From a virus: DNA of 64,000 nucleotides. The stretch is taken from IMG/VR virus record IMGVR_UViG_3300037572_000374, positions 1 to 64,000 of that record. The stretch is one strand, 5' to 3'. Position numbers and translations under genes: made by a program. Of this stretch, positions 2,204 through 64,000 are shown one piece after another. The notes beneath the pieces were generated by a model. That model made no database searches and was not told where the DNA came from. It saw only the letters and a program-made list of their open reading frames with translations. The stretch's first letter is position 1. Every line of letters starts with the position of its first letter.

Positions 2204-3388
2204 ATGTCATTCAATATTCAAACTCATCGAGAGTTGACACAAATAGAGACAAGGCAAGATGTCGGATTAGGGATCATGCGTTGGGGAAAGGATAATACTT
2301 TCCCACAGACATTAATTAATGTCATCCAACAATCTCCATCAGCAAAGACAGCTATAAGTAGAACTGCAAAGTTTTATAAAGGAGCAGGCTTTGATGGAGA
2401 GAATGAAATAATTAATGCATATGGATTGACTTTGAAAAAGTTAGTAGGGATCCTTGCAGATGATTATGCAAACTTTGAAGCATTTGCACTTCAATTGAAT
2501 TATAATCTAAAAGGACAAGTTACTTCAATGAATCCAATTAGAATAGCTACATTAAGATTTAATGAGTTTGATGAATTGAACTATGCATCGAAGGTTGGGT
2601 ATCATCCTAACTTTGGAAGAAATAGTGAAGTAGTCAAAAGTATTGATTCAACTGTAGCAGCTGGAGATATCAAATGGTTTAATAGATTCAATCCTAAAGC
2701 TGTTGAAGCTCAGATTGAAAAAACCAAAGGAGGTATTTCAAATTACTTAGGACAAGTACTTTACTTTAGTGAAGCAGGACATTCATCTTATCCTATTCCA
2801 CCATTGCAATCAGGAATCAATTATGTACTTTCAGATGTAGAGAATTCTATATTAGTAAGAAAAGAAACATCAACTGGATTCATTAACACTTATATGTTAA
2901 AGACTACAATGGACTCAGAAGACTCAACTTTGATAGCTTTAGAAAGAGCAATCGAAGAAGCACAAGGTGCAAGAGGAACTGGGAAAGTAATTACATTCTC
3001 AGGATTAAGTCCTGAAGAAGTATCAACTACACTACTTGAAGAAATGGGTGGTGGTGGAGCTGGATCGAAAGCAATTATCGAATCAGCAAGAATGGCATTT
3101 GAATTAGACAGAGAAGTAATTACTGGAGCATATTTGATCCCACCAGCATTGGCAGGTATTGATCAAAAGACTGGTCTTAGTGGAGCTGATCTACAAGAAG
3201 CATATTATGTGTTCAATGCAATTACTCAAGGTGGTAGAGATGCTATCGAAAGTGAATTGAATAATGTACTAGCTAATTCTATATTCAAAACCCAAGATGT
3301 ATCAATCAAGAAATTATCTTTAGACGTTCAAGAAGAACGAATGGAGGGAGAAGATAATGAGGAGATGTTAACTAATAAATCAGAATAA
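2204..3388 (+). CDS. Portal protein
   Basis: WGKDNTFPQ start and YPIP / ITGAYLIPP motifs typical of Bacteroidota phage portals; next to terminase. Confidence 0.75.
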   Translation: MSFNIQTHRELTQIETRQDVGLGIMRWGKDNTFPQTLINVIQQSPSAKTAISRTAKFYKGAGFDGENEIINAYGLTLKKLVGILADDYANFEAFALQLNYNLKGQVTSMNPIRIATLRFNEFDELNYASKVGYHPNFGRNSEVVKSIDSTVAAGDIKWFNRFNPKAVEAQIEKTKGGISNYLGQVLYFSEAGHSSYPIPPLQSGINYVLSDVENSILVRKETSTGFINTYMLKTTMDSEDSTLIALERAIEEAQGARGTGKVITFSGLSPEEVSTTLLEEMGGGGAGSKAIIESARMAFELDREVITGAYLIPPALAGIDQKTGLSGADLQEAYYVFNAITQGGRDAIESELNNVLANSIFKTQDVSIKKLSLDVQEERMEGEDNEEMLTNKSE

Positions 3389-3390
3389 CT

Positions 3391-3897
3391 ATGTATGATG
3401 TAAGTTTAGAAAGTAGATTGATATCTTCTGACATTGCTGACATGATGCAAGATTATGTTTCGATTCAGTTAGATATAGACAACACAAAGATTAAAGCAGC
3501 AGCTCTAGTAGCTCAAGAAATAGATATAGCAAGAGTAATTACAAAAGCCAACTTGGATAGAGTAATTGATTTAGATATTTATGATGAGACTATTCCAGAT
3601 GCTGATTTAAGTCTTAGAGCATTGTTGGTGGCACCTTGGTGTTACTATACATATGCAAGATGTCTTACAATGTTCCAAGGAACATTCACAGACTCAGGTT
3701 ATGCTGTTGAAGCAGAAGCCACAGATAAAGATGCTGCTAAGGCTGTAGCACAAGAAATGAAAAGTATAGGTGACAGTTTTATGTTACTTGTTACTGAATT
3801 CCTCACAGCAGAGGATGAAAGTACTTTAGCCGATGATAGCAAACTAGCTCCAAGAATCCGAGTAATGGGAGGAAAGGAGAATAGGGCATCTAATTAG
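3391..3897 (+). CDS. Putative head-tail adaptor/connector
   Basis: Position after the portal, size, helical content. Confidence 0.45.
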   Translation: MYDVSLESRLISSDIADMMQDYVSIQLDIDNTKIKAAALVAQEIDIARVITKANLDRVIDLDIYDETIPDADLSLRALLVAPWCYYTYARCLTMFQGTFTDSGYAVEAEATDKDAAKAVAQEMKSIGDSFMLLVTEFLTAEDESTLADDSKLAPRIRVMGGKENRASN

Positions 3898-3906
3898 TAT
3901 TCTACT

Positions 3907-3973
3907 CAGTAGCATGGTTGGCACATTGACATCATCCGATGCATGTGTGGAGGTTCGATTCCTCCACTACTAA
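3907..3973 (+). ncRNA. tRNA-like element (acceptor stem plus T-arm, no D stem)
   Basis: GGAGG-TTCGATT-CCTCC T-arm; CAGTAGC/ACTACTA acceptor-like stem (5 of 7 pairs); central hairpin GCACAT..CATC-ATCC-GATG..ATGTGT. Confidence 0.45.
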
Positions 3974-4019
3974 CTAAATGCAAAGTAATAGTACTTTGCA
4001 TAATTTAATTTTAATTATT

Positions 4020-4193
4020 ATGAGAGAAACAGAAGCTCTTTTAAAACTAGTGGTATCAATATTGACAGCCATTATTCTTTTCCCACTTACATTAGTTGTA
4101 GGAGTGTTGAGAATAATCAAATCAATCTTATCCATAATAGAAAAAACAATCTTAGCATTCATAAAGAATGTAAGACAAGAACTAATAAAATAA
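4020..4193 (+). CDS. Small membrane protein
   Basis: Hydrophobic N-terminal half; ATG at 4020 has an A/T-rich leader. Confidence 0.55.
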   Translation: MRETEALLKLVVSILTAIILFPLTLVVGVLRIIKSILSIIEKTILAFIKNVRQELIK

Positions 4194-4198
4194 TAACA

Positions 4199-4631: not shown

Positions 4632-5900
4632 ATGGGAAGACCTAGAAAAGTAGAAGCGGCACCAATCGAATTAAATATCAATCCAACATTCAAACCATTA
4701 TTTATGGATGAAATGGATATGCCTAGATACTATCAATTATTTGGTGGAAGGGGATCTGGTAAATCGTTTGTAGCTGCTTTGGCTATGGTTCAATTAACCT
4801 ACAGTAAATATGAACACAAGATACTTTATCTAAGACAGACAATGGCATCTTCAGATGATTCGGTTGTAGCTGATATAAAAGCTGCAATAAGATTAATGAA
4901 TGCAGAAGCTGACTTCAGAGAAAGTAAAGGAACGATCACAAACATTACAACTGGAGCAACAATTTCTTTTAAGGGAATAAGATCAAGTGGATCAGCAACT
5001 GCAAAGTTGAAATCTTTATCTGGAATCACAACTCTAGTAGTTGAGGAAGCAGAGGAGGTAGAATCGTTTGAAGAATTCTCTAAGGTGGATGAATCAATTA
5101 GGATTGCAGGAAAGCCATTAAAGGTTATTCTTATTTACAATCCAACATCTGCATTACAATCTTGGATCCACAAAGAATGGTTCATAGATGGAAGACCGAT
5201 GGAAGGAAGGAGTGATACAATTTACATGCACTCAACTTATTTAGATAACGTTACCAATCTGAATCCATCTGTAGTAAAAAGATATCAAGATCTTCAGGAA
5301 AGTAATCCAACTTACTATCTTAATACAATTATGGCTGAGTGGACTTTAGAGACTGCTGGTAGAATGTATGCTGGATGGGGAATGTATCCTGAGCTAGAAC
5401 AAGAAGGAGATACTTGGTATGGATTAGATTTTGGTTATGGTGGTAAAGATAGAACCTCAATGATTAAGATTACTTGGATTGATGAAGTGTACTATGTTGA
5501 ACAAATGTTCAGTGAGTCCAAACTTTCAATTAGAAGAACTCTTACTAAGATGAGAGAATGTCAGATACCATTCAATGCAAAGATATATGCCGATAGTGCT
5601 ATGCCATTACTTATTGATGAGATAAGAAGAGGTGGTTACAGAACAGTAAGAAAAGCTACTAAAGGAAATGTTGAAGCAGGGATTAAGAAGATTCAGAATA
5701 AGGACATAGTATTAATAGGAGATCAGTCAACACATTTGTTTCATGCTTACATGACATTTGCTAGAGACAAGAATGGAAAACTTCCTCACGAGCCAGATGA
5801 ATTGGCTGCAATGAGATATGGAATTAATTCTAAGACTCCAACTAAGAATCCTGGAAAGAATAGACCAGTAAGAGCAAGAAGAAGAAAAGGCTTCTTATAA
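4632..5900 (+). CDS. terL: Terminase large subunit, PBSX-like
   Basis: Walker A GGRGSGKS, Walker B LVVEEA, YNP coupling motif, nuclease motifs GLDFGY and YADSA. Confidence 0.93.
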   Translation: MGRPRKVEAAPIELNINPTFKPLFMDEMDMPRYYQLFGGRGSGKSFVAALAMVQLTYSKYEHKILYLRQTMASSDDSVVADIKAAIRLMNAEADFRESKGTITNITTGATISFKGIRSSGSATAKLKSLSGITTLVVEEAEEVESFEEFSKVDESIRIAGKPLKVILIYNPTSALQSWIHKEWFIDGRPMEGRSDTIYMHSTYLDNVTNLNPSVVKRYQDLQESNPTYYLNTIMAEWTLETAGRMYAGWGMYPELEQEGDTWYGLDFGYGGKDRTSMIKITWIDEVYYVEQMFSESKLSIRRTLTKMRECQIPFNAKIYADSAMPLLIDEIRRGGYRTVRKATKGNVEAGIKKIQNKDIVLIGDQSTHLFHAYMTFARDKNGKLPHEPDELAAMRYGINSKTPTKNPGKNRPVRARRRKGFL

Positions 5901-6766: not shown

Positions 6767-9331
6767 ATGGAGACAATAGCAATAGAATTTTTAACACAAG
6801 ATCAAGTAACATTAACTGAAGGATTGCTTCAGATGTTAGACACACAAGTAAGTAGTAACACTTTTATATTCGTAGTAGAGTTTGAAGAGTTAGAAATGCT
6901 TCTAGATGAATTAGACACAGAGATGAACTTAGATTTTGTAGTAACTAAATTAGACTAACGATATGAATAACTTAAAGAAAAAAGTATTAGAAGTAAAGGT
7001 AGGAGATACCTTTAAGTGTATAAAGGAAGGAGACTTCTTTACAGTAGGGAGCGACTATAAAGTTCAAACTTGTGACTATAAGATAGGAACAGAATCTACA
7101 GATGTAGAGTTTCGAGATGACGAATATGATCTTCATATGGTAACAGAATCATTTTTATTAACTAATTTTAAAAAACAATAAACTATGTCAAGAATAGCAC
7201 AGTACATTTTATTACTAAAACAACAACCACAAACATTAGAGGTGAAAAAAGAGATTCAGAACCTACAACAACAATTCGACATTAAGGAAGAGAAAAAATA
7301 TCCTGAAGGATCTTTACTTAATAATTTAACTCCTTCAGATTATCAATTAGACAATTAATATGGAAGCAAACGTAACATTCAATGGAGTACCTCTAGTAAT
7401 AATTTATGACTATCATGAAGGAGAAGAAGGTACATGGGACTATCCAGGTAGTGCAGCAGAGGTAGAACTTGAGGCAGTATTCCCAGAAGATAGTGAAACA
7501 GATATCTTAGACATCTTTACATGGAATCAACAAACTGAACTAGAAGATATAATTCTAGAACTTAAAAGAGACTACTAATGAAGAACAGAGAATTCAAGTG
7601 GATAGTAGGAGTGATCAAGAGTTGCAAGACTTTCCCACAAATACAGAATGCAGGTAACTTAGTAGACATATACTTTAAAAAGTATGATGATCAATTGGAT
7701 CGCTTTATGTTGAATAAGTGTATGGGAGATACAATGAACAAAGTAATAATGGATAAATATAATTAACATGAAAATATTAAATTTAGTAGAAGAGGCTGAG
7801 ATAGCAATCATCCAGCAAAAAGTAATTACAAAGGCAATGGTAGAGTTATCAGTTGAGATTCAAGCTCAGCATGAGATAGATTTAAAGCATGCTTTCAATA
7901 GAGGTAAGGCTAGTATGATGGGAGCATTTATGATGAATGCAGATCAATACTATGCTAAGTTCTATACAGATGAGATTTAGATTATGGATAAAAATAAAGA
8001 GAAGAAGGATCCAAAGATGGAGGTCCTTAGTTGGATGGGTACAGCTTGTATGCTAGGCAGTCCATACTTATTAAGTTATCCAATAGGATATGTGTTAGGA
8101 GCAATGGGAGTAGTATTAATAACTCCACCTTGCTATAAAAATAAACAATGGAATCTGGTATTGCTAAATGCAAGTAGCTTTATAGGATACACATTACAAT
8201 TCTTAGAATTAATTTAAAACAATAATAAAATGGAACTAGTAAGATATGAAGTAAGAGTAGGAATGTTCAAAGGAGTGCTGTTTGGCATGAGGGAATATGA
8301 ATTCATGAATAAAGATGTGAGAGAGAAGGACATTGTATTCTACTTTGGTATCTTTCAATTAGTAATAACTTTAATATATAATTAATATGACAGCAATACA
8401 ATTAATAGCTCTGTATACAATCTATGTAGATATGGTAAAGCAGAACAGAATGACAATAGAGGAAGCAATAAGTAATTTAGCAGCAGCTGGATTAACAACA
8501 ACTGATTATGATACATGGTATGATGAAGAAGGAAAGAGATTCAACTTCCCATTAGAGATACCATTCCCAAAACAAGATACTAATCAATTAAAACTAGAAC
8601 TATAATTGAGACTAACTAAAAAAATATAACATATATGGAGACGAATGATATACCTAAGGGTTGGTGGTTGAATGTTACCCTAATGGCTAGAAAGGAGAAC
8701 CCTAGTTGGATAGTTGGAGTACTAAGAGAAGGAAAGACTACTTGGATAACAGAGTATGTTAGAGGCGACTTAAATAACTCTAGAGAGGCATACAAAGTAG
8801 GAGTGGCTTTCATACAAAAGTGGAGAGCTAAGAGAGGATTAACTATAGACCCTAAATGGGAACGACAAATGGAAGAAGGTAAATTCTAATATAAAAAAAG
8901 AAAAAGAAATGTTGATAGAAACAAAGAAAGCATTACATAGAGTACTAGATGAAATGATAGGACGACTATCTTCAAAGCCAAGTGAGATAGGACTATGTAA
9001 GAGCTACATCTACTTAGACGAGGTGATGTACCTCACAAGAGAATACAAGGGAATGGAGTTAAACTATTTCGCTGAATGGTTTGCTCAAGGTAGGATTATA
9101 ATAAGATAGAAAGAAATTATGGTACACATAGAATTAGTAACTGGAAAAAAGATTACAGTAAAAGGAACACTGCATGATGTAGTTGGGACGTCTGGACCAA
9201 TCTTTAGATTAACCATGGTAACATTTGAAAGAGTATGGAACATGGATGGGAAACGTTATGTTGTAGAATCAGAAGAACAACAGATATTTTTACATGAAGA
9301 TAAAATAGTTTATATGTATGAATCACAATAA
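6767..9331 (+). other. Cluster of about 12 short early ORFs of unknown function (6767, 6963, 7360, 7578, 7768, 7984 membrane, 8230, 8387, 8635, 8909, 9119 and others)
   Basis: Tightly packed, co-oriented ORFs of 55-85 aa with A-rich leaders. Confidence 0.7.
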
Positions 9332-10146: not shown

Positions 10147-10599
10147 ATGAAAGAACAATTCAAAACCATACCAGGCTTCAGTCTGTATGAAGTAAGTGAC
10201 CAAGGAAGAGTGAAGAGCTTCCAACGATGTGGTAAGGAACCTTATAGGATCCTCAAACCTGGAACCAATAAAGGAGGTTACAAAGTAGTTATCATAAAGA
10301 ATGATGAAGGAAAGCTGAGAGGAATGAACATTCATGTACTAGTAGCTATCACCTTCCTCTCCCATGTACCTGAGAGGGGAGTAGTTGTTGTAGATCATAT
10401 TGATAATAATCCTTCTAATAATTTTTTGAATAACTTACAAATAATCTCATGTAGAGAGAATAGTAGTAAGGATCGAAAGAGCTTAGGGATCTATCATAAG
10501 AAGGATGTAGACAAGTATGTAGCTTCTTGGCAAGGTAAGTACATAGGTATCTACAATACAGAGGAGGAGGCTAGGAACGAACAGAGAAAATTTATTTAA
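10147..10599 (+). CDS. NUMOD4-HNH homing endonuclease
   Basis: IPGFSLYEVSDQGRVKS (NUMOD4), HVLVAITF, VDHIDNNPSNNFLNNL (HNH). Confidence 0.92.
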   Translation: MKEQFKTIPGFSLYEVSDQGRVKSFQRCGKEPYRILKPGTNKGGYKVVIIKNDEGKLRGMNIHVLVAITFLSHVPERGVVVVDHIDNNPSNNFLNNLQIISCRENSSKDRKSLGIYHKKDVDKYVASWQGKYIGIYNTEEEARNEQRKFI

Positions 10600-14276: not shown

Positions 14277-14525
14277 CCAATACATAAAGATAAATAACAT
14301 GAAGATAAAAATTACATTTGAACCTGGGATAGATTTCAAACCTATGGAAGGATGTGACAGTTGTATGACAATATATAATCCTGAGATACTAGACGATCCA
14401 AGTGTGAAAGAATACTTGAGGAGAACTAGTAAGAATAACGAATAAGTAATTTGTTTTTAATTTGTTTGATAGAGAGGTGGGACTTGTTATCCCACCTTTC
14501 GACATACACAAAAACTAATAAAGAT

Positions 14526-16929: not shown

Positions 16930-17434
16930 CTCTCAAAGTATTAAAAGCATATAACAAAGGCTAAAATTAATAGCCTAAATACGCTTAGTTTTTTAATTGA
17001 TTAGTTCATTACTTAGGCTACTAATCTTAGCCAAACCGTTAGGCAGAACATTAAAACGATTTGCCAACAATGTATATAAACAATTTCTCAAATGATTGGA
17101 TCCTCTTTCAACCCATTTCACTCTTTTATTTAACTACATCCCTTAGGGATGTAAGCAATTGTCCTTAATGTATTGAAGTTTGTTAGTGGGATTGCAATGC
17201 CATCTTTGAATAGCTAGCCTATTATTTAACGTGACTTACACACGGTAGTATTACTATAGCTTGACAAGCCTATTAACATGTTACTTCAAAATTTTCAATG
17301 AACTTATGTCTTGGTAGGCTAGTGAGAGACTTGCTCTGCTTCTTCGAGAACCTTTCCTAAAAAGGCTGCCTTCTTTCGACATGATAAAGATACTCTTATT
17401 TAAACATACGGGGCAACAAAAAGTTTAATTATTT

Positions 17435-51515: not shown

Positions 51516-51518
51516 AAT

Positions 51519-53540
51519 ATGAAAGTAACTAAGATAACACAAAACACCTCTATGAAGTTGGTAGATGGAACGCTTCCAGATATTGATACAGATTTTGCTG
51601 GTAGAAATAGAGCTGAGATTAAACAATACATGGAAGATAGATTTGGTCAAGAACAAGTGTGTTCAGTAGGATCTTATTCTACTATGAAATTGAAAGGCTT
51701 GGTAAAAGATTTTGCAAGAATATCTTCAGTTGACTTTAAAGAAGCTAATCTAATTACTTCAATAATTGATGCAGGAGATTTAACTATGTTAGATTTAATT
51801 AAAAGAGCTAGTAGTGAGCCAAGATTAAAGTCTTTCATTCAAAGGAACAGTGACATATTCTATATGTTGCCTACTTTGTTAGATCAGCCTAAGACACAAT
51901 CAATTCATCCATGTGCTGTAATTATATTCCCAAGTGTAATGAGTGCATCAGAATGGGTGCCAACAAGGTTACAACAAGGATTAGTAGTTTCAGAATGGGG
52001 AGGTAATGAAATGGATGATGCTGGATTCTTAAAGGATGATATTTTAGGTATTAAGCAATTAGATAAGTTTACAGATATCTTAGATCTCATAAAGATTAAT
52101 GATAAAGAAGTACCTAACATATATGATCTACCACACGATCCAGAAGTATTCAGATACTTTGGTAATGGATGGAATGGAGATGTGTTTCAATTAGGATCCA
52201 CTGGACTTACAGAATATAGTAAAGCACTAAAGCCTCAAAGAATTGAAGATTTAATTGCTGCAACTGCTGTATATAGACCTGGACCAATGGAGAATCACTA
52301 TCATGAGATTTATGTAAAGTGTAAGAATGAAGGTAGAGAGCCTAAATACTTATGGGGTACAGAAGAGATTGCAAAGGATACATTTGGACTTTTGATATAT
52401 CAGGAACAAGTAATGCAAGTGTTCCAATTAGTTGGAGGACTGAGTATGAAAGAAGCTGATGATGTTAGGAGAGCAATGGGTAAAAAGAAGTTATCTGCAT
52501 TGTTAAAGTGGAAAGAGAAAGTAGCTCAGGGATTCTTAGATAAAGGAGCAACACAAGCTCAGTTTGATGAAGTGTGGGTAGCAGTAATGGAGTTTGCAAA
52601 GTATGGATTCAATAAGAGTCACTCTGCTGCATATGCTATGACTGGTTATGCTTCTCAATGGTTAAAAGTTCATTATCCAATTGAATATTGGACAGTGGCT
52701 TTAGATTATGCAAATGAAGAAGATACTTTAAAGTATTTATCTGAAATTATGCAAGCCAAAGCAATTAGTGTGAAGGCTCCAGATATTAATCACTCAGCAA
52801 TGAGTATGATATCTGATCAAGAATCAAGTACAATCTTTTGGGGATTAGGATCCATCAAAGGTATTGGAGAAGATACAGCTAATCAAATTATTCAAGATAG
52901 AATTGAAAAAGGAGATTATAAGTCTTTTGCAGATTTTGTATTCAGACATAACTTCAAAGGTAGTAAAGTAAAGAAACAAACATATGAAGCACTAATTGCA
53001 TCAGGATGTTTTGATGATTTATACAATCTTGAAGGTAGAGAAGAAAGAAGACATCTGTTAATAAAGAGATATAGAAAGTATAAAAAAGTAAAGATAGCCA
53101 ATCCTAAAAGAGATGTTTATACAATAGGACAGACAGATCAAAGATGGTGGTGGTCATTACAGCAAAAGAGATTAACTGGTTTAGCATTCTTAGACTATAA
53201 AGGAATAGCAGAAGACTATGGAGTAGAATCTCAATTTGCTACATTAAGTGAAGTTAGTGGAAAGCAAGAGAAATCTATCTTTAGAAGTTTTGGTGGATAC
53301 ATAGTAGAAGCTAAAGTTGCAAGATCAGCTAAAGGTGAATATTGTAGAATAACAATAGAACATAATTACAAGTTATTTAAGATTATGGTTTGGTCAGAAG
53401 AGTTTGAAAACTTTAAGACTCAACTAAAAGGATCTGAAAAGAATCTGATAATATTTGAGGGTGAATTAAGATATGATGCCAAGTGGGCTAGAGCAAATCA
53501 GTTTACAATCAAAGAAAATTCAAAATTAATTGTTCTCTAG
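51519..53540 (+). CDS. dnaE: DNA polymerase III alpha, C-terminal part (catalytic palm, fingers, HhH, OB)
   Basis: PDIDTDF, KDDILG, YRPGPM, YQEQVM, YGFNKSHSAAY. Confidence 0.93.
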   Translation: MKVTKITQNTSMKLVDGTLPDIDTDFAGRNRAEIKQYMEDRFGQEQVCSVGSYSTMKLKGLVKDFARISSVDFKEANLITSIIDAGDLTMLDLIKRASSEPRLKSFIQRNSDIFYMLPTLLDQPKTQSIHPCAVIIFPSVMSASEWVPTRLQQGLVVSEWGGNEMDDAGFLKDDILGIKQLDKFTDILDLIKINDKEVPNIYDLPHDPEVFRYFGNGWNGDVFQLGSTGLTEYSKALKPQRIEDLIAATAVYRPGPMENHYHEIYVKCKNEGREPKYLWGTEEIAKDTFGLLIYQEQVMQVFQLVGGLSMKEADDVRRAMGKKKLSALLKWKEKVAQGFLDKGATQAQFDEVWVAVMEFAKYGFNKSHSAAYAMTGYASQWLKVHYPIEYWTVALDYANEEDTLKYLSEIMQAKAISVKAPDINHSAMSMISDQESSTIFWGLGSIKGIGEDTANQIIQDRIEKGDYKSFADFVFRHNFKGSKVKKQTYEALIASGCFDDLYNLEGREERRHLLIKRYRKYKKVKIANPKRDVYTIGQTDQRWWWSLQQKRLTGLAFLDYKGIAEDYGVESQFATLSEVSGKQEKSIFRSFGGYIVEAKVARSAKGEYCRITIEHNYKLFKIMVWSEEFENFKTQLKGSEKNLIIFEGELRYDAKWARANQFTIKENSKLIVL

Positions 53541-53555
53541 AAAGAGCTTAGATTG

Positions 53556-53582
53556 GGCACCTGAGGGTGCCTTTTCTTTTTT
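53556..53582 (+). terminator. Intrinsic terminator
   Basis: GGCACC-TGAG-GGTGCC followed by a T-run. Confidence 0.8.
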
Positions 53583-53851
53583 ATTTTAAAAATAAATGAA
53601 ATAAATGTTGCTTCGTATATTTAATTAGGAGTATCTTTATGGCAAGGAAAAAATATAATATATAAATTTAAAAATAAGTAAGATGAAAACAGTTAAAAAA
53701 GTAAGAGTAAACACAAAATTAGTAAAGAGGTCATTTTTAAGATTGGATGGGGCTGATAAATTTGGAGTACTATTTGGAGTACTATTTTTATTACCATGTG
53801 TTTCAGCAGTAATGATTGATGTAATTCAGAATGGGTCTGGAATGTGGTAAT

Positions 53852-54385
53852 ATGAAGTATACTATACACATTGGTGATAAACCTATCGTTTTAGAACATG
53901 ATGATTTAGATTCTTCTATTAATGTAGATGAGCTTACAAAGATTGATGTTGGAAATGTTTATGGAGATGCTGTAACTATATCAGCTGCTGTAAATAGAAT
54001 TGGACTGCTCAAAGCAGAAGTAGAAGCTTTGATGGCAACTACCAAGTTAGAATATAAGATATATGAAGGAGAGTATAAAGCCAAGTTAAGAAAGCAGGCT
54101 GCAAACAACTCTGGATTCTATTTGGTGAGAGTAGATAACGAAGATGTCAGAGTAAAATTATCTGAGACTTCATTAAGTAGCTCATTTGAGATTGATCCTA
54201 AATGGATTGAACTAAAGAAAGCATTCATTACTGCAGAGAAGAATTTCAATGCACTAAGTAGTTTGTATTGGGCTTGTCAAGATAAAAGTAGAAAATTAAA
54301 TTCATTAGTAAATGGAGTAACTCCAACTGAATTCGTTGAAGAGATGATTCAAGGAAAAGTTAATGGAATATTAATTACAAAATAA
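53852..54385 (+). CDS. Helical protein, possibly a UvsY-like recombination mediator
   Basis: Coiled-coil pattern, upstream of SSB and RecA. Confidence 0.4.
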   Translation: MKYTIHIGDKPIVLEHDDLDSSINVDELTKIDVGNVYGDAVTISAAVNRIGLLKAEVEALMATTKLEYKIYEGEYKAKLRKQAANNSGFYLVRVDNEDVRVKLSETSLSSSFEIDPKWIELKKAFITAEKNFNALSSLYWACQDKSRKLNSLVNGVTPTEFVEEMIQGKVNGILITK

Positions 54386-54478
54386 AAGAAAAGAATGTAC
54401 CCAAGGCATACATTCTGAAAACTAGAAGACCTTCAGTATTAATCGTGGCATAAGTAAGTCCACAAAAAACTATATATT

Positions 54479-55162
54479 ATGGGATTAGGATCAGTAAATG
54501 ACAACAAAAGATCAACATTTTTAACTATTGCAGGTGGGTACATCTGGGATAGAAAAGCTGACTCAAGTAATGCAAACTTTGCAACACAAGAGTTTAACAG
54601 AGCTGATGGAACAGTAGGTGAAAGAGCAGGAGCTCGTTACGCAGACTTGACTGGATTAGTTACAAAAGTAGAATTTAGAACTCATCCACAGTACGGAGAG
54701 AACTTAAATGTTACAATCGAATCAGAAGGTGAGGCTTTTATCTTATCAATATCTACAAATAATAGATATTCACAAGATATGATGAAGTGTTTATTAGTTG
54801 CAGATTTAAGACAACCGATTTATGTTAAGCCTTACGACTTTGTAGGGAATGACAAAAGAAGAGCAATGGGTATTTCATTCAGACAGAATGGAGAGAAGTT
54901 AACTCTTAGAGTGGAAGGAACTCCAACTCAAGACAGTGCTTGGTTCAAGACTGCAGGATCTAAGAATATCAAAAGATTCTTCGAAGATTTGAATGAGTGG
55001 TTTGTAAATGAGGTAACTGCTCAGGTAGTAGGAAATCTTGATGCTTTAAAGCCAGCACCAGTTGCAAAACCAAAACCAGTAGCTAAAGTAGCAGAAGCTG
55101 CTCCAGTTGCTAAAGTAGAAGAGGGAGATTTAGATTCTCAACTTGATGCTTTATTAGGATAA
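54479..55162 (+). CDS. Putative single-stranded DNA-binding protein
   Basis: OB-like core, Pro/Ala linker, acidic tail GDLDSQLDALLG. Confidence 0.6.
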   Translation: MGLGSVNDNKRSTFLTIAGGYIWDRKADSSNANFATQEFNRADGTVGERAGARYADLTGLVTKVEFRTHPQYGENLNVTIESEGEAFILSISTNNRYSQDMMKCLLVADLRQPIYVKPYDFVGNDKRRAMGISFRQNGEKLTLRVEGTPTQDSAWFKTAGSKNIKRFFEDLNEWFVNEVTAQVVGNLDALKPAPVAKPKPVAKVAEAAPVAKVEEGDLDSQLDALLG

Positions 55163-55222
55163 TTATAATAAGGGGATTGTTAATTCAGTCCCCTATATTA
55201 TTTAACATTAAAATTATACACC

Positions 55223-55498
55223 ATGGAAAAAAGATACTACGTATTGAAAGCTGGTAATTTTAAGCAAGAAAAGAAGTCAGGTCTAAAAGATAAATGGACT
55301 GATGGAAGATGGGCTAGATTGCTAAGTGCTGGAGGAGCTAAGAAAAGCTTCACAGAAAACAGAGGAGAAGTTATTGTGCATGTTCAAGATGGAACTAAGA
55401 TCCTATATCAAAAAGGATGGGGATCAAAAGTAGATAAGGAGCAAGTATGGATAGCCGATTTCAAGAAAGATAAAGGAAGATTTTTTAAATTCAAATAA
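55223..55498 (+). CDS. Hypothetical basic protein
   Basis: In-operon ORF. Confidence 0.65.
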   Translation: MEKRYYVLKAGNFKQEKKSGLKDKWTDGRWARLLSAGGAKKSFTENRGEVIVHVQDGTKILYQKGWGSKVDKEQVWIADFKKDKGRFFKFK

Positions 55499-56524
55499 AT
55501 GAAAGATAAATTAGCAATAATATTTAATGATGCACATCTCAAGACTGGGAATGAGCAAGATGTAATACACTCTGTAAAGCATATGTTAAAGTATGCCAAG
55601 AAAGAAGGTATTGCTAATTTGATATTTGCTGGAGATTTATTTGATAGTAGATCGTTTCAAAGACAAAGTGTTTTACATGCTTTTGATGAAATATTAGATC
55701 TAATAAATAAAGCTGGATGCACTTTGTATATATTTCCAGGAAACCACGATAAGACAGTTTATGCTTCTTATGATAGTTTCTTAGATGTATACAGACATTA
55801 TCCAAGTGTAGTTTTCAACAGAGAATTATCTGTTATCGAATTAGATGGAGTTACAATTACATTGTTGCCATTCTTTTCAGATGATATGTTGATTCCAATG
55901 TTGGAAGAAGCAAAGCCTACAGATGTGTTGATTAGCCATTTTGAAATGGCAGGATCTACTCACTTAGGAAAAGTTTCTGTAAAAAGTACAATTAATAAAA
56001 AACTTTTGAGTAAGTTTACCAAAACTTATTTAGGACATTATCACAATCATCATGAAATAAGTAAAGACATCGTTCATCTACCTTCATTAAGACAAAGTAA
56101 CTTTGGTGAAGACGAGAACAAAGGATTTGCAGTATTGAATAAAGATTTGTCGTATGAACTAATTAAGGGTGATTTTAAGAGCTTTAAGAAAGTAACTATT
56201 GATATTAATAAAACTACAGCAAAGCAATTAAAAGAATTGATTACAACTTATGAAAATAGCTCAAACACTATTCGTTTTGAATTTGTAGGAGATGAAAGTA
56301 AGTTAAAGGCTCTGGATAAGAGTTTGTTTAATGGATCCGGAATTGATGTGAAGATTAAGTATGATGTTAAGTATGACTATAAAGATGATCAACTAGCATT
56401 ACCAACTGTGATTGAACATTATGGAGAGGAGCAAGTTAAAGATGCTTTTAAGAGTTTTTGTAATGAAAAGGGATATGAATATCAAGAAGGTATTGTATTA
56501 TTAAATGAATATTTAAAGAGATAA
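55499..56524 (+). CDS. SbcD/Mre11-like nuclease
   Basis: DAH, GDLFD, GNHD, SH and GHYH metallophosphoesterase motifs. Confidence 0.9.
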   Translation: MKDKLAIIFNDAHLKTGNEQDVIHSVKHMLKYAKKEGIANLIFAGDLFDSRSFQRQSVLHAFDEILDLINKAGCTLYIFPGNHDKTVYASYDSFLDVYRHYPSVVFNRELSVIELDGVTITLLPFFSDDMLIPMLEEAKPTDVLISHFEMAGSTHLGKVSVKSTINKKLLSKFTKTYLGHYHNHHEISKDIVHLPSLRQSNFGEDENKGFAVLNKDLSYELIKGDFKSFKKVTIDINKTTAKQLKELITTYENSSNTIRFEFVGDESKLKALDKSLFNGSGIDVKIKYDVKYDYKDDQLALPTVIEHYGEEQVKDAFKSFCNEKGYEYQEGIVLLNEYLKR

Positions 56525-56528
56525 ATAT

Positions 56529-57491
56529 ATGAGCAAAGGAATAAAAAATGCACTAGCTGCCTTAGAGAAAAGATTTGGAGAATCAGTTGTAATGAAAATG
56601 AATGAAGCAAACACTTCAATAGAAACATTTTCATCTGGAAGACCAAGTTTAGATTCTAAGTTGGGTGGTGGATATGGAGTAGGTAAGATCGTTGAGATTT
56701 ATGCTGAATCGGGATGTGGAAAGACTGGACTAGCTTTAGAAGCAATTGCAAGTATGCAATCAAGTGGAGGAATTTGTGCAATCATTGATGCTGAGCATGC
56801 TTTGAATACAGAGTACTGTGAACAAATTGGTGTTGATATTGATGCACTTTATATTTCACAACCTACTTATGGAGAGCAAGCATTTGAAGCTATTAGAGCA
56901 TTAGTTAACACTGGTGAAGTAAATTTGATAGTAATAGATTCAGTTGCAGCTATGATTCCAAAAGCAGAATTAGAAGGTGAAAGTGGAGAAGCTAAAATTG
57001 CATTGCAGGCTAGAATGATGTCTCAAGGTATGAAGTTAATTACTGGAGCAGCATCTGATAACAAATGTACGATCATATTCATTAATCAATTGAGAAAAAC
57101 TATTGCAATGTATGGACCAAGTGAAACCACAGCTGGTGGTAAGGCTTTAAAATTCTATGCAACACAAAGGTTAGAGATTAAGAATAGAGGACAGATCAAA
57201 CAAGGAGATGAAACTATTGGATTCAAACAACAAATCAAAATAGTTAAGAATAAAGTTGCAGCACCATTTCAAGTGTATGCAGAAGATATCATATATGGAA
57301 AAGGAGTAGACAATACACAAGGTTTTGTTGATGCTTTAGTATATGAAGAAATACTTTTAAAGGCAGGAGCTTGGTATAAGTATGATGGAACTAATATTGC
57401 AAAAGGGATGAAAAATCTTAGAGCAGCATTAGAAGATAATCCTGATTTGCAGGATGAACTACAAAGCAAGTTAGATGCTTTAAGAAAATAA
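56529..57491 (+). CDS. recA: RecA recombinase
   Basis: ESGCGKT, IDAEHAL, DSVAAMIPKAE, ARMMSQ, GGKALKFYA, KNKVAAPF. Confidence 0.96.
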   Translation: MSKGIKNALAALEKRFGESVVMKMNEANTSIETFSSGRPSLDSKLGGGYGVGKIVEIYAESGCGKTGLALEAIASMQSSGGICAIIDAEHALNTEYCEQIGVDIDALYISQPTYGEQAFEAIRALVNTGEVNLIVIDSVAAMIPKAELEGESGEAKIALQARMMSQGMKLITGAASDNKCTIIFINQLRKTIAMYGPSETTAGGKALKFYATQRLEIKNRGQIKQGDETIGFKQQIKIVKNKVAAPFQVYAEDIIYGKGVDNTQGFVDALVYEEILLKAGAWYKYDGTNIAKGMKNLRAALEDNPDLQDELQSKLDALRK

Positions 57492-57544
57492 GTATAAAGA
57501 TCGGACCCAGACGAACTGGGGATTAAAATTAAAATAGAGTAAAA

Positions 57545-57763
57545 ATGAAAAATTTAGTATTAGTATTAGTATTAGTGTTTACATTCGGATTAACATCATG
57601 TGAACAAGACGTAATTGAATCTCCACAAAGTGAGTGTTCACAAATCAATGGATATTACGAAAACCTAACTGCAGGATTAACTCCTCAAGAGGCTTCGTTA
57701 TATATTCAAGAATGGCAAGATGCTTTGAATGCAGCAGGATGTCCAAGTTTGGATACAATATAA
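57545..57763 (+). CDS. Small lipoprotein
   Basis: Lipobox LTS-C. Confidence 0.7.
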   Translation: MKNLVLVLVLVFTFGLTSCEQDVIESPQSECSQINGYYENLTAGLTPQEASLYIQEWQDALNAAGCPSLDTI

Positions 57764-57840
57764 TTAAAAAGAATTGGGTGAGTCTTAGAGCTTAGGCATT
57801 TGATTGCTACACCCAACTAAGAGTACCAAAAAATATACAT

Positions 57841-59772
57841 ATGAGATTAGATAGAGCAGTAGTAAAAAACTTTTTAACTTATGAGAATCTGGATTATAAC
57901 TTTTCCAGAAATCCTCTATTAGTACAAGGTAGAAATTTAACAGAAGAAGATCAGGAATCAAACGGATCCGGAAAGTCTGGTTTGTTTACAGCAATTGAGT
58001 TTTGTATTACAGCTAGTAATTCTAGAGATGTAAGAGATAACGAATTAGTTATGTTTGGAGAGAAACAAGCAAATGCTGAATTGTATGCCTCATGTGATAT
58101 TAGAAAAGAACAATTACATATAGCTTGGCTAATTAAAGTAAAAGGATCCAATGTACTAACACTTAAAAAGAAATCGTACGATGGAGAATGGGAAGAGATA
58201 AGTTTCTCAAATGTAAATGATGGTAAGAAGTATATCATGAATTGGTTTGATATTGAAAAAGAAGACCTATTCAACTATTACATTATTAACAAGAGTAGAT
58301 TTAAAACTTTCTTTAAAGCTAGTAATAAGGAAAAAGTAGAGTTGATAAACAGATTTAGTGATGCATCGATTATTGATGGACTAGATAAAGTTGACAATTC
58401 TGAGTTACAGTTAGAATATGATACTATCAAATCTAATATAGATAAAGTAGTTGGAAAGGTAGAATTCATTACTCAACAACTAACTCAAGAGGAAGAAGTA
58501 ATTGATGAGAGTCAATTAGTAAAAGACATTCAAGATAAGATCTCACAAGTAAATGACGATAAGTTAGATGTACAAGATGAGATTAAAGAGTTTGACCAAA
58601 AGAAGTCAGATGATGCTAAATTGTTAAAAGATGCTGAAGGTAAATTAGCAGCAATAGACGTTAAGGTATCTATGGCTCAAAAGGCATTTGATAATTACAA
58701 AACACAATTAATAAGTACAACAGATCAAGAAGATCAAATTGACACATTGTCTACAAAGCAATTGAAGGTAGATAAGTTACTCAATGAATTAGATATAGAA
58801 TTATCTGGATCCATTGAATGTCCTAAATGTTCTTATGAATTTGTATTAGATTCTAAACATGGATCCATTGAACAAGCTAAACAAAAACAGAGTCAAGCGT
58901 GTGAGATAAGAAAAACTATTTCAAGTAAGATTGACCAGTTAGATGTTGAGATTTCAAATATACAATCTTCTAATAAAGAACAAGAAGATAAGAGACAGAA
59001 GTTAAGAGATGATCTAAACCAAGCTTCAACTCAATCTCAATCTTCATCAAGACAAGTACTAAGATATGAAAAACTTATTGCTGAGCACGATAAAGATATA
59101 GCAGACTGTAATAATGATCTAAAACAATTTGATCTAGATATCAAGCAATTGAATATAGATATTAAGAATGTAGGATCCACAAAGCCAAACAATAAAGAAA
59201 ACTTTGAAGAGCAGTTATCAAAACTCTCAACAGAGCAGAAGGATCTTGAAGAGGAGTTATCTACAAAAGGAGATGAGATCTATAAGAGGAATCAATGGGC
59301 CAATAACTTTAAACAGTTTAGAGCTCATCTTGCAAACCAATCATTGGAAGCAATAGAATTTCACATGAATAGATATTTAGATGGAATGGATTCAGATTTG
59401 AAAGTTAAGATGGAAGGATTTAAACTTCTTGCAAATGGAACATTCAAAGATGAGATTACAGCTAAAATTATTAGAACAGTTGAAAGATCGTTCAGTAGCT
59501 TCTCAGGAGGTGAACAAGGAAGACTTTTATTTGCAGCAATACTTGCAAATAGACATATGTTAAATAGTACTCACAAATATGGTGGTTTAGATTTCTTATC
59601 TATTGACGAAGTATTTGAAGGAGTAGATTCTTTAGGATTGAAAAAATTAGTAAAGAGTGCTAAACAATTAGATATTTCTGTTATGATTATTACTCACGTT
59701 ACAGATGAAGAAGTAAGTGATGATATATTATTAATTGAAAAAATAAATGGAATAAGTTATGTCAAAAAATAA
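57841..59772 (+). CDS. SbcC/Rad50-like SMC ATPase
   Basis: NGSGKS, CPKC zinc hook, FSGGE, IDEVFEGVD, ITH. Confidence 0.93.
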   Translation: MRLDRAVVKNFLTYENLDYNFSRNPLLVQGRNLTEEDQESNGSGKSGLFTAIEFCITASNSRDVRDNELVMFGEKQANAELYASCDIRKEQLHIAWLIKVKGSNVLTLKKKSYDGEWEEISFSNVNDGKKYIMNWFDIEKEDLFNYYIINKSRFKTFFKASNKEKVELINRFSDASIIDGLDKVDNSELQLEYDTIKSNIDKVVGKVEFITQQLTQEEEVIDESQLVKDIQDKISQVNDDKLDVQDEIKEFDQKKSDDAKLLKDAEGKLAAIDVKVSMAQKAFDNYKTQLISTTDQEDQIDTLSTKQLKVDKLLNELDIELSGSIECPKCSYEFVLDSKHGSIEQAKQKQSQACEIRKTISSKIDQLDVEISNIQSSNKEQEDKRQKLRDDLNQASTQSQSSSRQVLRYEKLIAEHDKDIADCNNDLKQFDLDIKQLNIDIKNVGSTKPNNKENFEEQLSKLSTEQKDLEEELSTKGDEIYKRNQWANNFKQFRAHLANQSLEAIEFHMNRYLDGMDSDLKVKMEGFKLLANGTFKDEITAKIIRTVERSFSSFSGGEQGRLLFAAILANRHMLNSTHKYGGLDFLSIDEVFEGVDSLGLKKLVKSAKQLDISVMIITHVTDEEVSDDILLIEKINGISYVKK

Positions 59773-61988: not shown

Positions 61989-62124
61989 AAAATATTTTAT
62001 TGCATGAATAGGAGCCTTAGGGCTCCTTTCTTTGTTTTGTTAAAAAATAAATGAAATAAATGTTGCTTTGAACTTTGGTTTAGGAGTATCTTTATCTCAT
62101 CAAACAAATAAAAAAATAGAAATT

Positions 62125-62487
62125 ATGTTATCAAACAACACTTTAGAAGTATTAGAACAAAAATTAGCTTACGTAAAATCTCAGTTAAAAACTGAAGGAA
62201 AGTATTTAAATCCACAAGGGATGGTAATTATCAACAGAGAATTATCTTCTCTTAAAGGTAAGATTAATGAAGCTAAACTTAGACACTTTGTTGGAAAAAC
62301 AACAAAAGGAGCTTTAGTTTACACAGCAGTTAATCCTTATGGATCTACATCAGCTGATAAAGTACTTTATATAGAGGGTCTTCCAAGTGGATGGGATGCT
62401 GCTGCATTTGATCAAACAAGTGGAGCTGAACAAGAAGTTATGATTGATGGAGGTCAAGAGTGGTCAGAAACAATTATCTTCAACTAG
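62125..62487 (+). CDS. Early hypothetical protein (start 62125)
   Basis: Promoter at 62062. Confidence 0.7.
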   Translation: MLSNNTLEVLEQKLAYVKSQLKTEGKYLNPQGMVIINRELSSLKGKINEAKLRHFVGKTTKGALVYTAVNPYGSTSADKVLYIEGLPSGWDAAAFDQTSGAEQEVMIDGGQEWSETIIFN

Positions 62488-62547
62488 AAAAATACAAAGA
62501 GGGATATGGACCACTCTCTAACTGGTCCTATTACGAATAAATACAAT

Positions 62548-62913
62548 ATGAGAATATTAACAATTTTATTATTTGTGATTTCATTAAGTTGTAAGTCACA
62601 AGAGCCACAAAAAGTTCATGCTACAGTTTACAATGCTGTACCAGAACAAACTAATTCAGATCCTGGTCACACAGCATTTATGTTTGAGTTAGATTTACAA
62701 AATCCTTACAAGCACAAAATTATTGCAGTGAGTAGAGATTTATTAAAAAAGTATCCTAAAGGAACCAAAGTACAAGTACAAGGTACTACCTATGATGGGA
62801 TTTTTATTGTAATGGATAAAATGAATAAGAGATATACAAATCGTATTGATCTGTTGATTAATCAAGAAATGCAGATTGGCAATTGGCCAGATGCAACAAT
62901 AACTAAAATCTAG
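62548..62913 (+). CDS. 3D-domain (MltA-like) lipoprotein
   Basis: Lipobox LS-C; ATVYN..QTNSDP, IAVSRDL, DKMNKR..RIDLL. Confidence 0.8.
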   Translation: MRILTILLFVISLSCKSQEPQKVHATVYNAVPEQTNSDPGHTAFMFELDLQNPYKHKIIAVSRDLLKKYPKGTKVQVQGTTYDGIFIVMDKMNKRYTNRIDLLINQEMQIGNWPDATITKI

Positions 62914-62917
62914 TAAT

Positions 62918-63280
62918 ATGAAAAAGTTTATTTTAGCGATCGATTTTGATGGCACAATAGCAACAGATAGTTTTCCAGAAGTAGGAAAGCTAATCAAAGA
63001 TGCAGATAGAATTATACAAAAGCTGTATGAAGATGGTCATGACATAATCATTAACACATGCAGAACAGGAAAGTATGAAGGATTGGCTGAGTACTTCTTA
63101 AAGAAGAATGATATACCATATCATTACATCAATAGTAATTTACCAAGAGTGATTGAATTCTTTAAACAAGATTGTAGAAAGATTTCAGCAGACTATTATA
63201 TAGATAATAGAAGTATTGGTAGATTACCAAGTTGGACAGAAATTTATAAAATAATTAAAAAAGATAGCTTAGGCAAATAA
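62918..63280 (+). CDS. HAD-family hydrolase
   Basis: IDFDGTI, TCR, K..ADYYID. Confidence 0.88.
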   Translation: MKKFILAIDFDGTIATDSFPEVGKLIKDADRIIQKLYEDGHDIIINTCRTGKYEGLAEYFLKKNDIPYHYINSNLPRVIEFFKQDCRKISADYYIDNRSIGRLPSWTEIYKIIKKDSLGK

Positions 63281-63308
63281 TTTTAGTATCTTTACCAAAA
63301 ATACAATT

Positions 63309-63584
63309 ATGGCAGAAAGGTTTAATGTAAGTGAAAATAGGTTTGAATGTCTCAAACAGCTAATGGCAGATGCCAAGGCTGGGAGGAAGAAAATCTCAGC
63401 AAAGCAACACAGAGAGTTGTTGAACTTAAAGGCAGCTTATAATGGATTCTCCAAAGACTTCGATCTACAAACTACACTGAGAGTAATTTCTCACTTAGAA
63501 GATATGAAGGCAGGAGAGGCAGCTACAAGTAGCGACTTAATTAGATTAGAGATATTAAAAGATAAAATCTTAGGACATGAATAA
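63309..63584 (+). CDS. Hypothetical protein
   Basis: ORF after a partial promoter at 63287. Confidence 0.65.
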   Translation: MAERFNVSENRFECLKQLMADAKAGRKKISAKQHRELLNLKAAYNGFSKDFDLQTTLRVISHLEDMKAGEAATSSDLIRLEILKDKILGHE

Positions 63585-64000
63585 GATTATAGCATACACA
63601 GATGGAAGTGCAGTAGTTAGAGGAGTGGCTAAGGGTAATGGAGGTTTTGGAACTTATTTTCCAGATCTGTATGGATCCAAAGCTGCCTTTAGTTTAGGTT
63701 TTAAAACAACTAAGACTGGACGTATGGAAGTGTCTGCTTTATTCTATGCAATCAATGCTATCAAAAAAGATAGTGCAGTAGAACTTGTTATTTACAGTGA
63801 TTCAGAATATGTAGTCAAATCCTTTACAGAGAATAGATTACAAAAGTGGATTGCTAATGGATGGAGAAATTCTGGTGGCAGTATTGCAAACATAGATTTA
63901 TGGAAGCCAATTATACAAGCATTGGAGGATAGACCTTTGATGAAGCTAACAATGATTCATATTAGATCTCATCAAGTCGAAAAGGAGAAGGATCCATATA
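63577..64000 (+). CDS. rnhA: Ribonuclease HI (runs off the window end)
   Basis: Hand translation: YTDGS, RME, YSDSEYV, NIDLW, IRSH. Confidence 0.9.
   Translation, partial: MNKIIAYTDGSAVVRGVAKGNGGFGTYFPDLYGSKAAFSLGFKTTKTGRMEVSALFYAINAIKKDSAVELVIYSDSEYVVKSFTENRLQKWIANGWRNSGGSIANIDLWKPIIQALEDRPLMKLTMIHIRSHQVEKEKDPY

Follow-up and report, generated by a model that had tools for sequence, protein, structure and literature searches.

Over-representation of the palindrome GGATCC in a marine relative of Cellulophaga phage phiST, possibly under weak selection on site number

Introduction

One expects phages to rid their genomes of restriction-type palindromes. The viral record IMGVR_UViG_3300037572_000374 (78,505 bp, estimated to be 98% complete and labelled G000 below) raises the opposite question, namely why the hexamer GGATCC is so frequent in its DNA. 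The stretch analysed here, called the window, comprises bases 1-64000 of this record. An earlier note, made from the letters of the window alone, had claimed a strong over-representation of GGATCC and had suggested that the site may be positively selected, for example as a target of DNA modification, repair or a phage DNA-binding protein. The closest named relatives of G000 are the Cellulophaga phages phiST, phi19:2 and phi13:1 (genus Cbastvirus), with 70% amino-acid identity in DnaE, while Tenacibaculum phage Larrie shows 61% in the same protein; judged by its sequence, G000 appears to be a marine, uncultured relative of phiST. A clade multiplying such a palindrome implies that something in infected cells rewards GGATCC or mechanically creates it, and the same puzzle is posed by HIP1 of cyanobacteria, open for some 30 years, and by the B3 mycobacteriophages.

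Results

The GGATCC excess survives composition and codon controls

Pattern search found 32 GGATCC sites in the window, at exactly the 32 positions listed in the earlier note, and 44 in the whole genome, i.e. 0.56 per kb. Dinucleotide-preserving shuffles of the window contain 4.1 sites on average and at most 10, and the Markov expectation is 4.2 at the first order and 6.8 at the third, so that the claimed over-representation is confirmed and GGATCC ranks first among the 4096 hexamers. It also ranks first in the whole genome, with 44 sites against 5.2 (Markov-1) or 10.4 (Markov-3) expected. A fourth-order model gives 19.3 expected sites in the window (19-25 overall), but the reasoning is circular, as GGATCC sites alone make up the excess of the pentamers GGATC and GATCC; GGATCA, GGATCG and GGATCT are at expectation.

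Gene models, which are simple longest-ORF (open reading frame) calls, place 16 sites of the window in the frame GGA-TCC (Gly-Ser), nine in NNG-GAT-CCN and four in NGG-ATC-CNN, the remaining three being intergenic. Since the sites occupy all frames, a single codon-pair effect is ruled out. From the amino acids and the genome codon usage 4.8 genic sites would be expected in the window, whereas 29 are seen, with every frame in excess. Permutation of synonymous codons within genes yields 5.9 ± 2.1 sites in the window against the same 29, and 8.1 ± 2.4 against 41 inside genes for the whole genome; after codon or dinucleotide controls, z amounts to 11-17. Thus the excess withstands the Markov and codon corrections which the earlier note had named as its refuting test.

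The proteins themselves are not biased: Gly-Ser and Asp-Pro dipeptides are not raised, either relative to orthologues or relative to residue shuffling. In core genes, defined as those with orthologues in phiST or Larrie, 19 of the 66 Gly-Ser pairs (29%) are encoded by GGATCC, which makes it the commonest encoding despite TCC being a 3.4% codon elsewhere. At conserved amino acids the relatives choose synonymous options such as GGA TCT, GGT TCA, TGG ATT CAT or AAA GAC CCA. Collectively, these data show that the excess stems from codon choice, mainly synonymous, without a change in protein composition.

The over-represented word is essentially limited to six bases. The flanks of the sites are unrelated to each other, and extension of the word past the hexamer is marginal at best (p=0.048). 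The 44 sites show no significant spatial structure (coefficient of variation of the spacing, p=0.16). The inner tetramer GATC is present in 283 copies, against 272 (Markov-1) or 335 (Markov-2) expected. Among the 239 copies outside GGATCC, the common non-palindromic flank classes stand at 0.91-1.28 of expectation and the rare CGATCC/GGATCG class at 2.17, while the other palindromic contexts flanked by A/T are low (AGATCT 0.62 and TGATCA 0.48 of expectation). Words at a single mismatch from the site are not depleted, as seen for GGATTC (24 vs 15-19) and GGATCT (22 vs 16-20).

Long-resident core genes carry the sites

The sites are unevenly shared between core genes and the other genes, termed accessory. 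Core genes hold 37 sites in 44.3 kb (0.83 per kb) and accessory genes only 5 in 28.2 kb (0.18 per kb; p=2e-4), that is, the core is about 4.7 times denser, with Markov-1 expectations of 4.4 and 2.3 sites, respectively. The encoding of Gly-Ser differs in the same sense, the 19 of 66 core pairs comparing with 3 of 46 accessory ones (p=0.0035). One block of the window is entirely free of the word:

35392-42806, plus strand: tail-fibre and lysis block (7.4 kb), no GGATCC; neither phiST nor Larrie has orthologues of the tail-fibre genes

If it were as dense as the core, this block would be expected to hold 6.2 sites (P(0)=0.002). The site-free stretches named in the earlier note are real, and its remark that they look imported is supported by the core/accessory contrast and by this block, but not by the largest single site-free gap, which is insignificant on its own (p=0.28). 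These data show that recently exchanged modules have yet to gain GGATCC and that the enrichment depends on residence time.

The excess marks one clade, with gaps among close relatives

The excess is not a property of the named relatives, as phiST contains 9 GGATCC against 5-7 expected and Larrie none. Four near-complete relatives from IMG/VR (G402, G403, G404 and G405) contain 0, 6, 0 and 11. A metagenome scan with the SbcC-like protein as query gave 51 related loci (L numbers below), in which the excess was scored as genic sites against a codon-aware expectation. Further relatives, 80-98% identical to G000, occur on contigs as long as 58 kb. Enrichment was found in the following loci:

L082: 7 genic sites, 0.8 expected; mosaic near-twin of G000, 96-99% amino-acid identity from DnaE to RecA
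L065: 9 genic sites, 2.3 expected
L063: 6 genic sites, 1.4 expected
L060: 3 genic sites, 0.45 expected
L067: 2 genic sites, 0.08 expected

The enrichment persists at only 50-59% identity at four-fold sites, and three other loci (L061, L086 and L059) have no excess. A seeming parallel in L002, where AGGATC occurs 11 times against 1.6, was discarded as not comparable, being confined to one strand and due merely to Gly-Ser codons. The excess is thus a trait of one uncultured marine phage clade, patchy among close relatives.

Sites arise by diverse substitutions and turn over

To polarise the differences, 13 relatives were aligned to G000 and outgroups were used. Nearly every polarisable difference is a gain, and several gains are multi-step and occurred in different lineages. 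For instance, L082 followed the path AGATGC -> GGATGC -> GGATCC, L063 gained a site from GGTAAC, and L065 gained sites from GAATWC and through GGAGAY -> GGATCT -> GGATCC. Over 25 orthologous columns, the closest non-site state departs from the word by one base (19 columns), two bases (5) or three (1). Substitutions fall at all six positions and are mixed, with A>C (12) as frequent as T>C (12) and with A>G, A>T and G>C also present, which means that no single context-specific mutation or deamination-repair reaction can be responsible. In particular, very-short-patch repair (Vsr/Dcm-type) was rejected: T-for-C neighbours are undepleted, A>C equals T>C, and there is no PF03852 match. The 32 sites of the window, with the states found in relatives, are the following:

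2448-2453: portal-like gene 2204-3388, frame NGG-ATC-CNN
5164-5169: large terminase gene 4632-5900, TGG ATC CAC; phiST and Larrie have TGG ATT CAT, same amino acids
8007-8012: small accessory ORF 7984-8217, frame NNG-GAT-CCN
10247-10252: HNH/NUMOD4 endonuclease gene 10147-10599
17098-17103: intergenic, or within a 42-aa ORF
17920-17925: SGNH-hydrolase-like gene 17677-18417 (minus strand), GGA TCC
18064-18069: same SGNH-hydrolase-like gene 17677-18417 (minus strand), GGA TCC
20216-20221: intergenic
23543-23548: structural gene 23143-23592
23658-23663: structural gene 23605-24048, TTG GAT CCT
23781-23786: structural gene 23605-24048, CTG GAT CCA
26287-26292: large structural gene 25331-28162
26882-26887: large structural gene 25331-28162; Gly-Ser, against Glu-Gln or Glu-Asp in relatives
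28329-28334: structural gene 28173-30824
29133-29138: structural gene 28173-30824
33381-33386: intergenic, directly after the capsid-like gene
34796-34801: gene 34239-35372; final site ahead of an 8.35-kb stretch without sites
43147-43152: DEDDh exonuclease gene 42923-43810
48825-48830: within the DpdA3 orthologue
50460-50465: first DnaE (PolIII alpha) ORF; common to the near-twin L082
51305-51310: first DnaE ORF; common to L082 and L065; TGATCC in L002 and L061
51426-51431: first DnaE ORF; common to L082; GGATCT in three outgroups, hence a gain
52194-52199: second DnaE ORF; gain on the G000 branch (L082 GGATCA; outgroups GGCTCC or GGTAGT)
52848-52853: second DnaE ORF; common to L082 and L002
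56333-56338: SbcD-like phosphoesterase gene; path GGTTCT -> GGATCT -> GGATCC inferred from relatives
57964-57969: P-loop (Gly-Ser-Gly-Lys) of the SbcC-like gene 57841-59772; site also in L065, L063 and L062
58144-58149: SbcC-like gene; sole site common to phiST
58807-58812: SbcC-like gene; common to L067
58861-58866: SbcC-like gene; gained from GGAACT in two steps, including a Thr-to-Ser change
59173-59178: SbcC-like gene; common to L067
63673-63678: RNase H-like gene 63577-64116; common to L065 and L063
63990-63995: RNase H-like gene 63577-64116; common to L060

The RNase H-like gene carries a third GGATCC at genome position 64020, beyond the end of the window. Taken together, the comparisons show a weak, persistent, genome-wide pressure which holds the density up in each lineage while the positions turn over.

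The deazaguanine cluster is shared with relatives lacking the excess

The window contains a 7-deazaguanine cluster (44504-49296, plus strand), recognised by Pfam hits to FolE, PTPS and radical SAM and by orthology with phiST:

44504-44974, plus: QueD
45000-45854, plus: QueE
45854-46357, plus: flavodoxin, between QueE and FolE, without phiST counterpart
46431-47138, plus: FolE
47139-47705, plus: MazG
47683-48060, plus: DpdL orthologue, small T-fold protein, 58% identical to phiST gp040
48051-48518, plus: kinase-like ATPase
48520-49296, plus: DpdA3 orthologue, 258 aa, 63% identical to phiST gp042

The genes for QueD, QueE, FolE, MazG, DpdL, the ATPase and DpdA3 stand in the same order as in phiST, where gp040 was taken as DpdL and gp042 as DpdA3 from the gene order given in PMC10516641. 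As was expected for a divergent subfamily, the DpdA3 orthologue escapes the Pfam TGT model; no QueC was seen in G000. In phiST, phi19:2 and phi13:1 these genes accompany full replacement of deoxyguanosine by 2'-deoxy-7-deazaguanine (dDG), together with resistance to restriction enzymes that have G in their sites (Cui et al. 2023, PMC10516641). By homology to phiST, the DNA of G000 is probably fully dDG-substituted as well.

The DpdA-encoding context proposed earlier is thus real, yet the bias is not common to all such phages. Both phiST and G405 have the same DpdA3/DpdL type and GGATCC at expectation, which shows that the modification is not the cause of the excess. Full 7-deazaguanine substitution is compatible with it, as a permissive and not a causal condition. 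The idea that dDG phages generally accumulate palindromes was also discarded, as ATCGAT, GATATC and CAGCTG in the relatives fall to expectation under Markov-3. Larrie, without the cluster, purges many palindromes, and G404 and others likewise shed GATC and many hexamers, whereas dDG-type genomes mostly do not.

Several observations concern palindromes other than GGATCC. Larrie retains a single GATC against 171-184 expected, G404 has 2 against 204, and L068, L076 and L084 have 0-1; L091, L092 and L096 are also nearly devoid of it. In Larrie, CCGG, GGCC, GAATTC, GATATC, GAGCTC and CTCGAG are likewise zero or near-zero, a case of extreme restriction avoidance. The phiST-type dDG cluster is absent from both full GATC-poor genomes examined for it, Larrie and G404. 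G000 itself avoids some G-containing palindromes, namely ACATGT (1 vs 26), CTTAAG (3 vs 35), AAGCTT (11 vs 44) and AGGCCT (1 vs 9), and CTTAAG is also avoided by phiST, G405 and G402. Nascent unmodified DNA may be exposed to restriction at these words, or 7-deazaguanine may fail to block the enzymes concerned. As for the flavodoxin of the cluster, it could plausibly serve as a dedicated reductant for the radical-SAM enzyme QueE.

Discussion

Weak selection on site number and the case against it

Which force multiplies GGATCC? Since the substitutions are diverse in type and position, the gains multi-step and convergent, and the trait persistent at 50-59% four-fold identity, these features point to a force acting on the finished word. 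As this word is a palindrome, its reader is likely to be a dimeric protein acting on double-stranded DNA. We therefore favour, tentatively and with a probability of about 0.4, the view that one phiST-like marine clade carries GGATCC as a highly iterated palindrome, under weak positive selection on site number. A dimeric sequence-specific protein would recognise GGATCC on phage double-stranded DNA, each added site would bring the phage a small benefit, and 7-deazaguanine in place of all G would remove the usual cost of a restriction-type palindrome. The reader could be a methyltransferase or modification enzyme of BamHI specificity, probably encoded by the host as the phage has none, although we regard this as rather doubtful; a role in recombination, replication or 'self'-marking, with the phage machinery as the reader, appears less likely again, and other binding proteins still less so. 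A bolder form of the idea is that GGATCC is a virus-specific 'self' word, Chi-like but palindromic and owned by the phage, whose density would be sensed by the phage machinery. The sensor might be the SbcCD/RecA recombination-replication apparatus, a nuclease degrading word-poor host DNA, or a loader of the DpdA3 base-exchange complex; extra sites would be slightly advantageous and imported modules would be gradually 'naturalised'. GGATCC is indeed some 10-15 times denser in the phage than in Flavobacteriales DNA, but we consider this proposal improbable.

Several results weigh against selection on the number of sites. Only about 20-30% of the compatible codon contexts hold GGATCC, so any selection must be weak. 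G000 and L082, which are 93% identical in nucleotides, have 5 sites in common, while 4 occur only in G000 and 2 only in L082; the 5 of 9 G000 sites shared compare with 5.8 under neutral decay, in a small sample. In more divergent relatives carrying the trait, 11 of 27 sites are retained against 7.8 expected, which is not significant; this expectation comes from the 26-36% retention of any synonymous hexamer, with small numbers and relatives that are not mutually independent. Such neutral-rate turnover fits a neutral replenishing process equally well. Moreover, the two outer positions on either side of GATC account for 25 of 43 differences (58%), as predicted by a ratchet around a methylated GATC core, though codon phase explains this too. 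Finally, the search for a reader in the phage was negative. No match to PF01555, PF02086 or PF00145 (N6/N4, Dam and C5 methyltransferases) occurs anywhere in the phage, and no BamHI-like, Vsr (PF03852), MutH/Sau3AI-like or DndC-like gene was found in its genome. Pfam, PHROGs and PADLOC applied to about 60 proteins, genome-wide family searches, a PDB sequence search and Atlas look-ups gave no reader either, and the phage-specific proteins of unknown function provided no lead. The sole hits were the two homing endonucleases of HNH type and a very weak match to MTase_II (L001:5386-5955, E=9e-4 over 58 residues) unsupported by other tools. Hence, for the earlier proposal that a modification, repair or phage DNA-binding protein targets the site, these searches provided no site-specific methyltransferase, nuclease or binder.

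Alternative explanations

The strongest competitor, which we hold to be unlikely but in need of serious consideration, is a neutral ratchet in which biased repair or correction tied to a GGATCC- or GATC-recognising enzyme of the host or phage makes sites without any benefit to the phage. It corresponds to the methylation-dependent mismatch repair that Elhai proposed for cyanobacterial HIPs, and biased correction of recombination heteroduplexes would be equivalent. Turnover near the neutral rate without positional conservation, the conversion of a minority of compatible contexts and the outer-position share all suit it, as do a core density near Elhai's 'saturation' of roughly 1 per kb and the patchiness among close relatives, which is expected if the driver is a mobile gene of restriction-modification type. 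On the other hand, genes for a methyltransferase, Vsr, MutH or a MutS/L-type function are missing from the phage, and the one-mismatch neighbours are undepleted. Besides, the equality of A>C and T>C over all six positions excludes classical T:G very-short-patch repair, several gains took two or three substitutions, amino-acid changes included, and repair of this kind has never been demonstrated, even for HIP1. What stands of the positive selection claimed earlier is therefore a directional pressure at the DNA level, supported by the Markov and codon controls, the gains at six positions and the contrast with imports; selection as its source is not separated from a biased-repair ratchet, given the near-neutral turnover.

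The remaining explanations fare worse. If a GATC-cutting host system cleared GATC and spared only the copies shielded by a GGATCC-specific methylase, the excess would be merely relative; many relatives do purge GATC fully (Larrie, G404, L068, L076, L084), and AGATCT and TGATCA are low in G000. This scheme is nevertheless very improbable, as it is contradicted by the 239 GATC outside GGATCC and a total within the 272-335 expected, as loss of GATC elsewhere cannot lift an absolute count to 44 against 7-10, and as outgroups show true gains from words without GATC. Similarly, a bias present in core genes and missing from recent acquisitions is the pattern of amelioration, by which a phage drifts toward the signature of a GGATCC-rich host. 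Such mimicry is scarcely credible here, albeit on indirect evidence: among 401 Flavobacteriales species genomes none shares the bias, and the seven densest ones sampled, the outlier G033 and six others, are simply GC-rich (41-58%) and normal after Markov correction. A RecA search of cellular genomes returned as its sole match a phage-like contig binned with a Flavobacteriales metagenome-assembled genome, and that genome carries only 0.05 GGATCC per kb. An origin by chance, from codon-pair bias or from faulty sequencing or assembly, such as miscalls of modified bases, can be practically dismissed. It is true that Markov-4 shrinks the excess to 32 against 19 and that some platforms can make systematic basecalling errors when the DNA is modified. 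However, Markov-4 is circular and the excess, found in all frames, keeps a z of 11-17 after the controls. Contigs assembled independently from other samples match the site-bearing stretches without a difference (the comparison with contigs from public runs covered, out of about 1,000 differences, the 40 with the best support), and their loose ends are Nextera adaptors, which shows that the libraries are Illumina. The phage is present in marine metagenomes of at least 10 studies. Furthermore, no neighbouring word is abundant enough to supply 39 extra sites by miscalls, and relatives from other assemblies show the same excess.

Comparison with known systems

The nearest parallels are the highly iterated palindromes (HIPs) of cyanobacteria, HIP1 (GCGATCGC) and its alternates, notably GGGATCCC of Yellowstone Synechococcus strains (PMC4390886, PMC5861425). 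Like these, GGATCC is a short G+C-rich restriction-type palindrome with a GATC core, and the variant GGGATCCC actually contains it. In both cases the word lies far beyond Markov and codon expectation, in all frames and between genes, and originates from point substitutions rather than from a mobile repeat. Its density is about 1 per kb (0.83 in the G000 core), it is specific to a lineage while other lineages use alternate words, and the same two models, selection and a biased-repair ratchet, contend. The differences are also clear. G000 has a hexamer in a virus, not an octamer in a cellular genome, with an enrichment of about 6-8 fold, where HIP1 reaches 15-300 fold; its genome contains no cognate methyltransferase of the kind described for HIPs (Elhai 2015), although the host might supply one; and its DNA is probably fully 7-deazaguanine-substituted. 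Positional conservation of HIP1 was an argument for selection (Xu, Lawrence and Durand 2018, PMC5861425), whereas the G000 sites turn over near-neutrally, so that the phage offers no such argument. The periodic spacing of HIPs has a scale of 10-90 kb; the G000 genome, of only 78.5 kb with 44 sites, has random-like spacing.

Among phages, GATC and GGATCC are over-represented in subcluster B3 mycobacteriophages, a finding which its authors considered to contradict restriction avoidance and left unexplained (Siranosian et al. 2015, PMC4841201). When recomputed here, the B3 phage Phaedrus has 105 GGATCC against 37 (Markov-1), 1.6 fold over Markov-3. As in G000, the same hexamer is enriched genome-wide in one sub-lineage and not in its sisters. 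However, B3 genomes have 68% G+C, their GATC tetramer is about four-fold enriched while that of G000 is at expectation, and their hexamer excess is weaker and tetramer-driven, in contrast to the 4-6 fold over Markov-3 in G000. A deazaguanine link for B3 was discarded, as no such genes are annotated in Phaedrus. That genome starts (L012, 73-2040) with genes for a ParB-like nuclease and a PAPS-reductase-like (DndC-like) protein, which could possibly be components of a DNA modification system related to the word bias.

Other precedents touch single aspects. Avoidance of restriction palindromes by phages (Rusinov et al. 2018, PMC6286503) concerns the same class of words, but for GGATCC in G000 the sign is opposite, and relief from restriction by dDG would only bring a word back to expectation, not to an eight-fold excess. 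Motif-specific DpdA modification occurs at GA and GGC in CAjan (PMC7544227) and at GA in iggy (PMC10484667). G000 also has a DpdA-family gene, and GGATCC has GA on both strands; nevertheless this is a DpdA3-type gene, and in phiST that type replaces all G irrespective of motif. We know of no model that would cause a DpdA target to accumulate. Chi sites and DNA uptake sequences are asymmetric, orientation-dependent and shared with the host genome. GGATCC resembles them in being frequent in long-resident core DNA, rare in new DNA and present in many copies of small effect, but it is palindromic and in excess in none of the sampled Flavobacteriales genomes. The phenomenon is thus not new in kind; what sets it apart from described HIPs is a viral hexamer, a presumably substituted guanine, the lack of a cognate methyltransferase in the genome and turnover in place of positional conservation. 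The clade offers a compact comparative system, with genomes of roughly 78 kb, near-twins, sisters with and without the trait, polarised gains and a core/import contrast, so that gene-association tests or population-genetic tests of selection against repair are feasible with existing marine metagenomes.

Additional observations

The hexamers next in over-representation genome-wide, TGGTGG (48 vs 9.8) and GGTGGT (38 vs 7.4), are strand-specific and look like Gly-Gly codon runs; phiST, L004 and L005 also have related words of the GGTGG type near the top of their hexamer ranking. In a Flavobacteriales genome of 49% G+C (G033; L015-L019), GATC is about 1.5-2 fold over-represented (877 vs 414-589 in 100 kb) and CCTAGG nearly absent (1 vs 14-21).

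As regards gene content, DnaE (PolIII alpha) is divided between two neighbouring ORFs (49962-51515 and 51519-53540); the annotations of phiST and Larrie show this division too, which makes it ancestral to the group. The ORFs 62068-62487 and 63309-63584 are examples of genes specific to the clade. Alignment of L082 with window positions 49962-59772 gives 96-99% amino-acid identity from DnaE to RecA and only 61% in the neighbouring SbcC-like gene, a sharp mosaicism which indicates a recent module swap at about 57.5-57.8 kb. The two HNH-type homing endonuclease genes (10147-10599, NUMOD4+HNH_3; 14451-14987, endonuclease VII/HNH-like) lie within an array of small accessory ORFs. A family-2 glycosyltransferase of 455 aa (528-1895) has neither an orthologue in phiST or Larrie nor a close relative among 185,579 species genomes, and looks like a moron, i.e. 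a host-derived extra gene.

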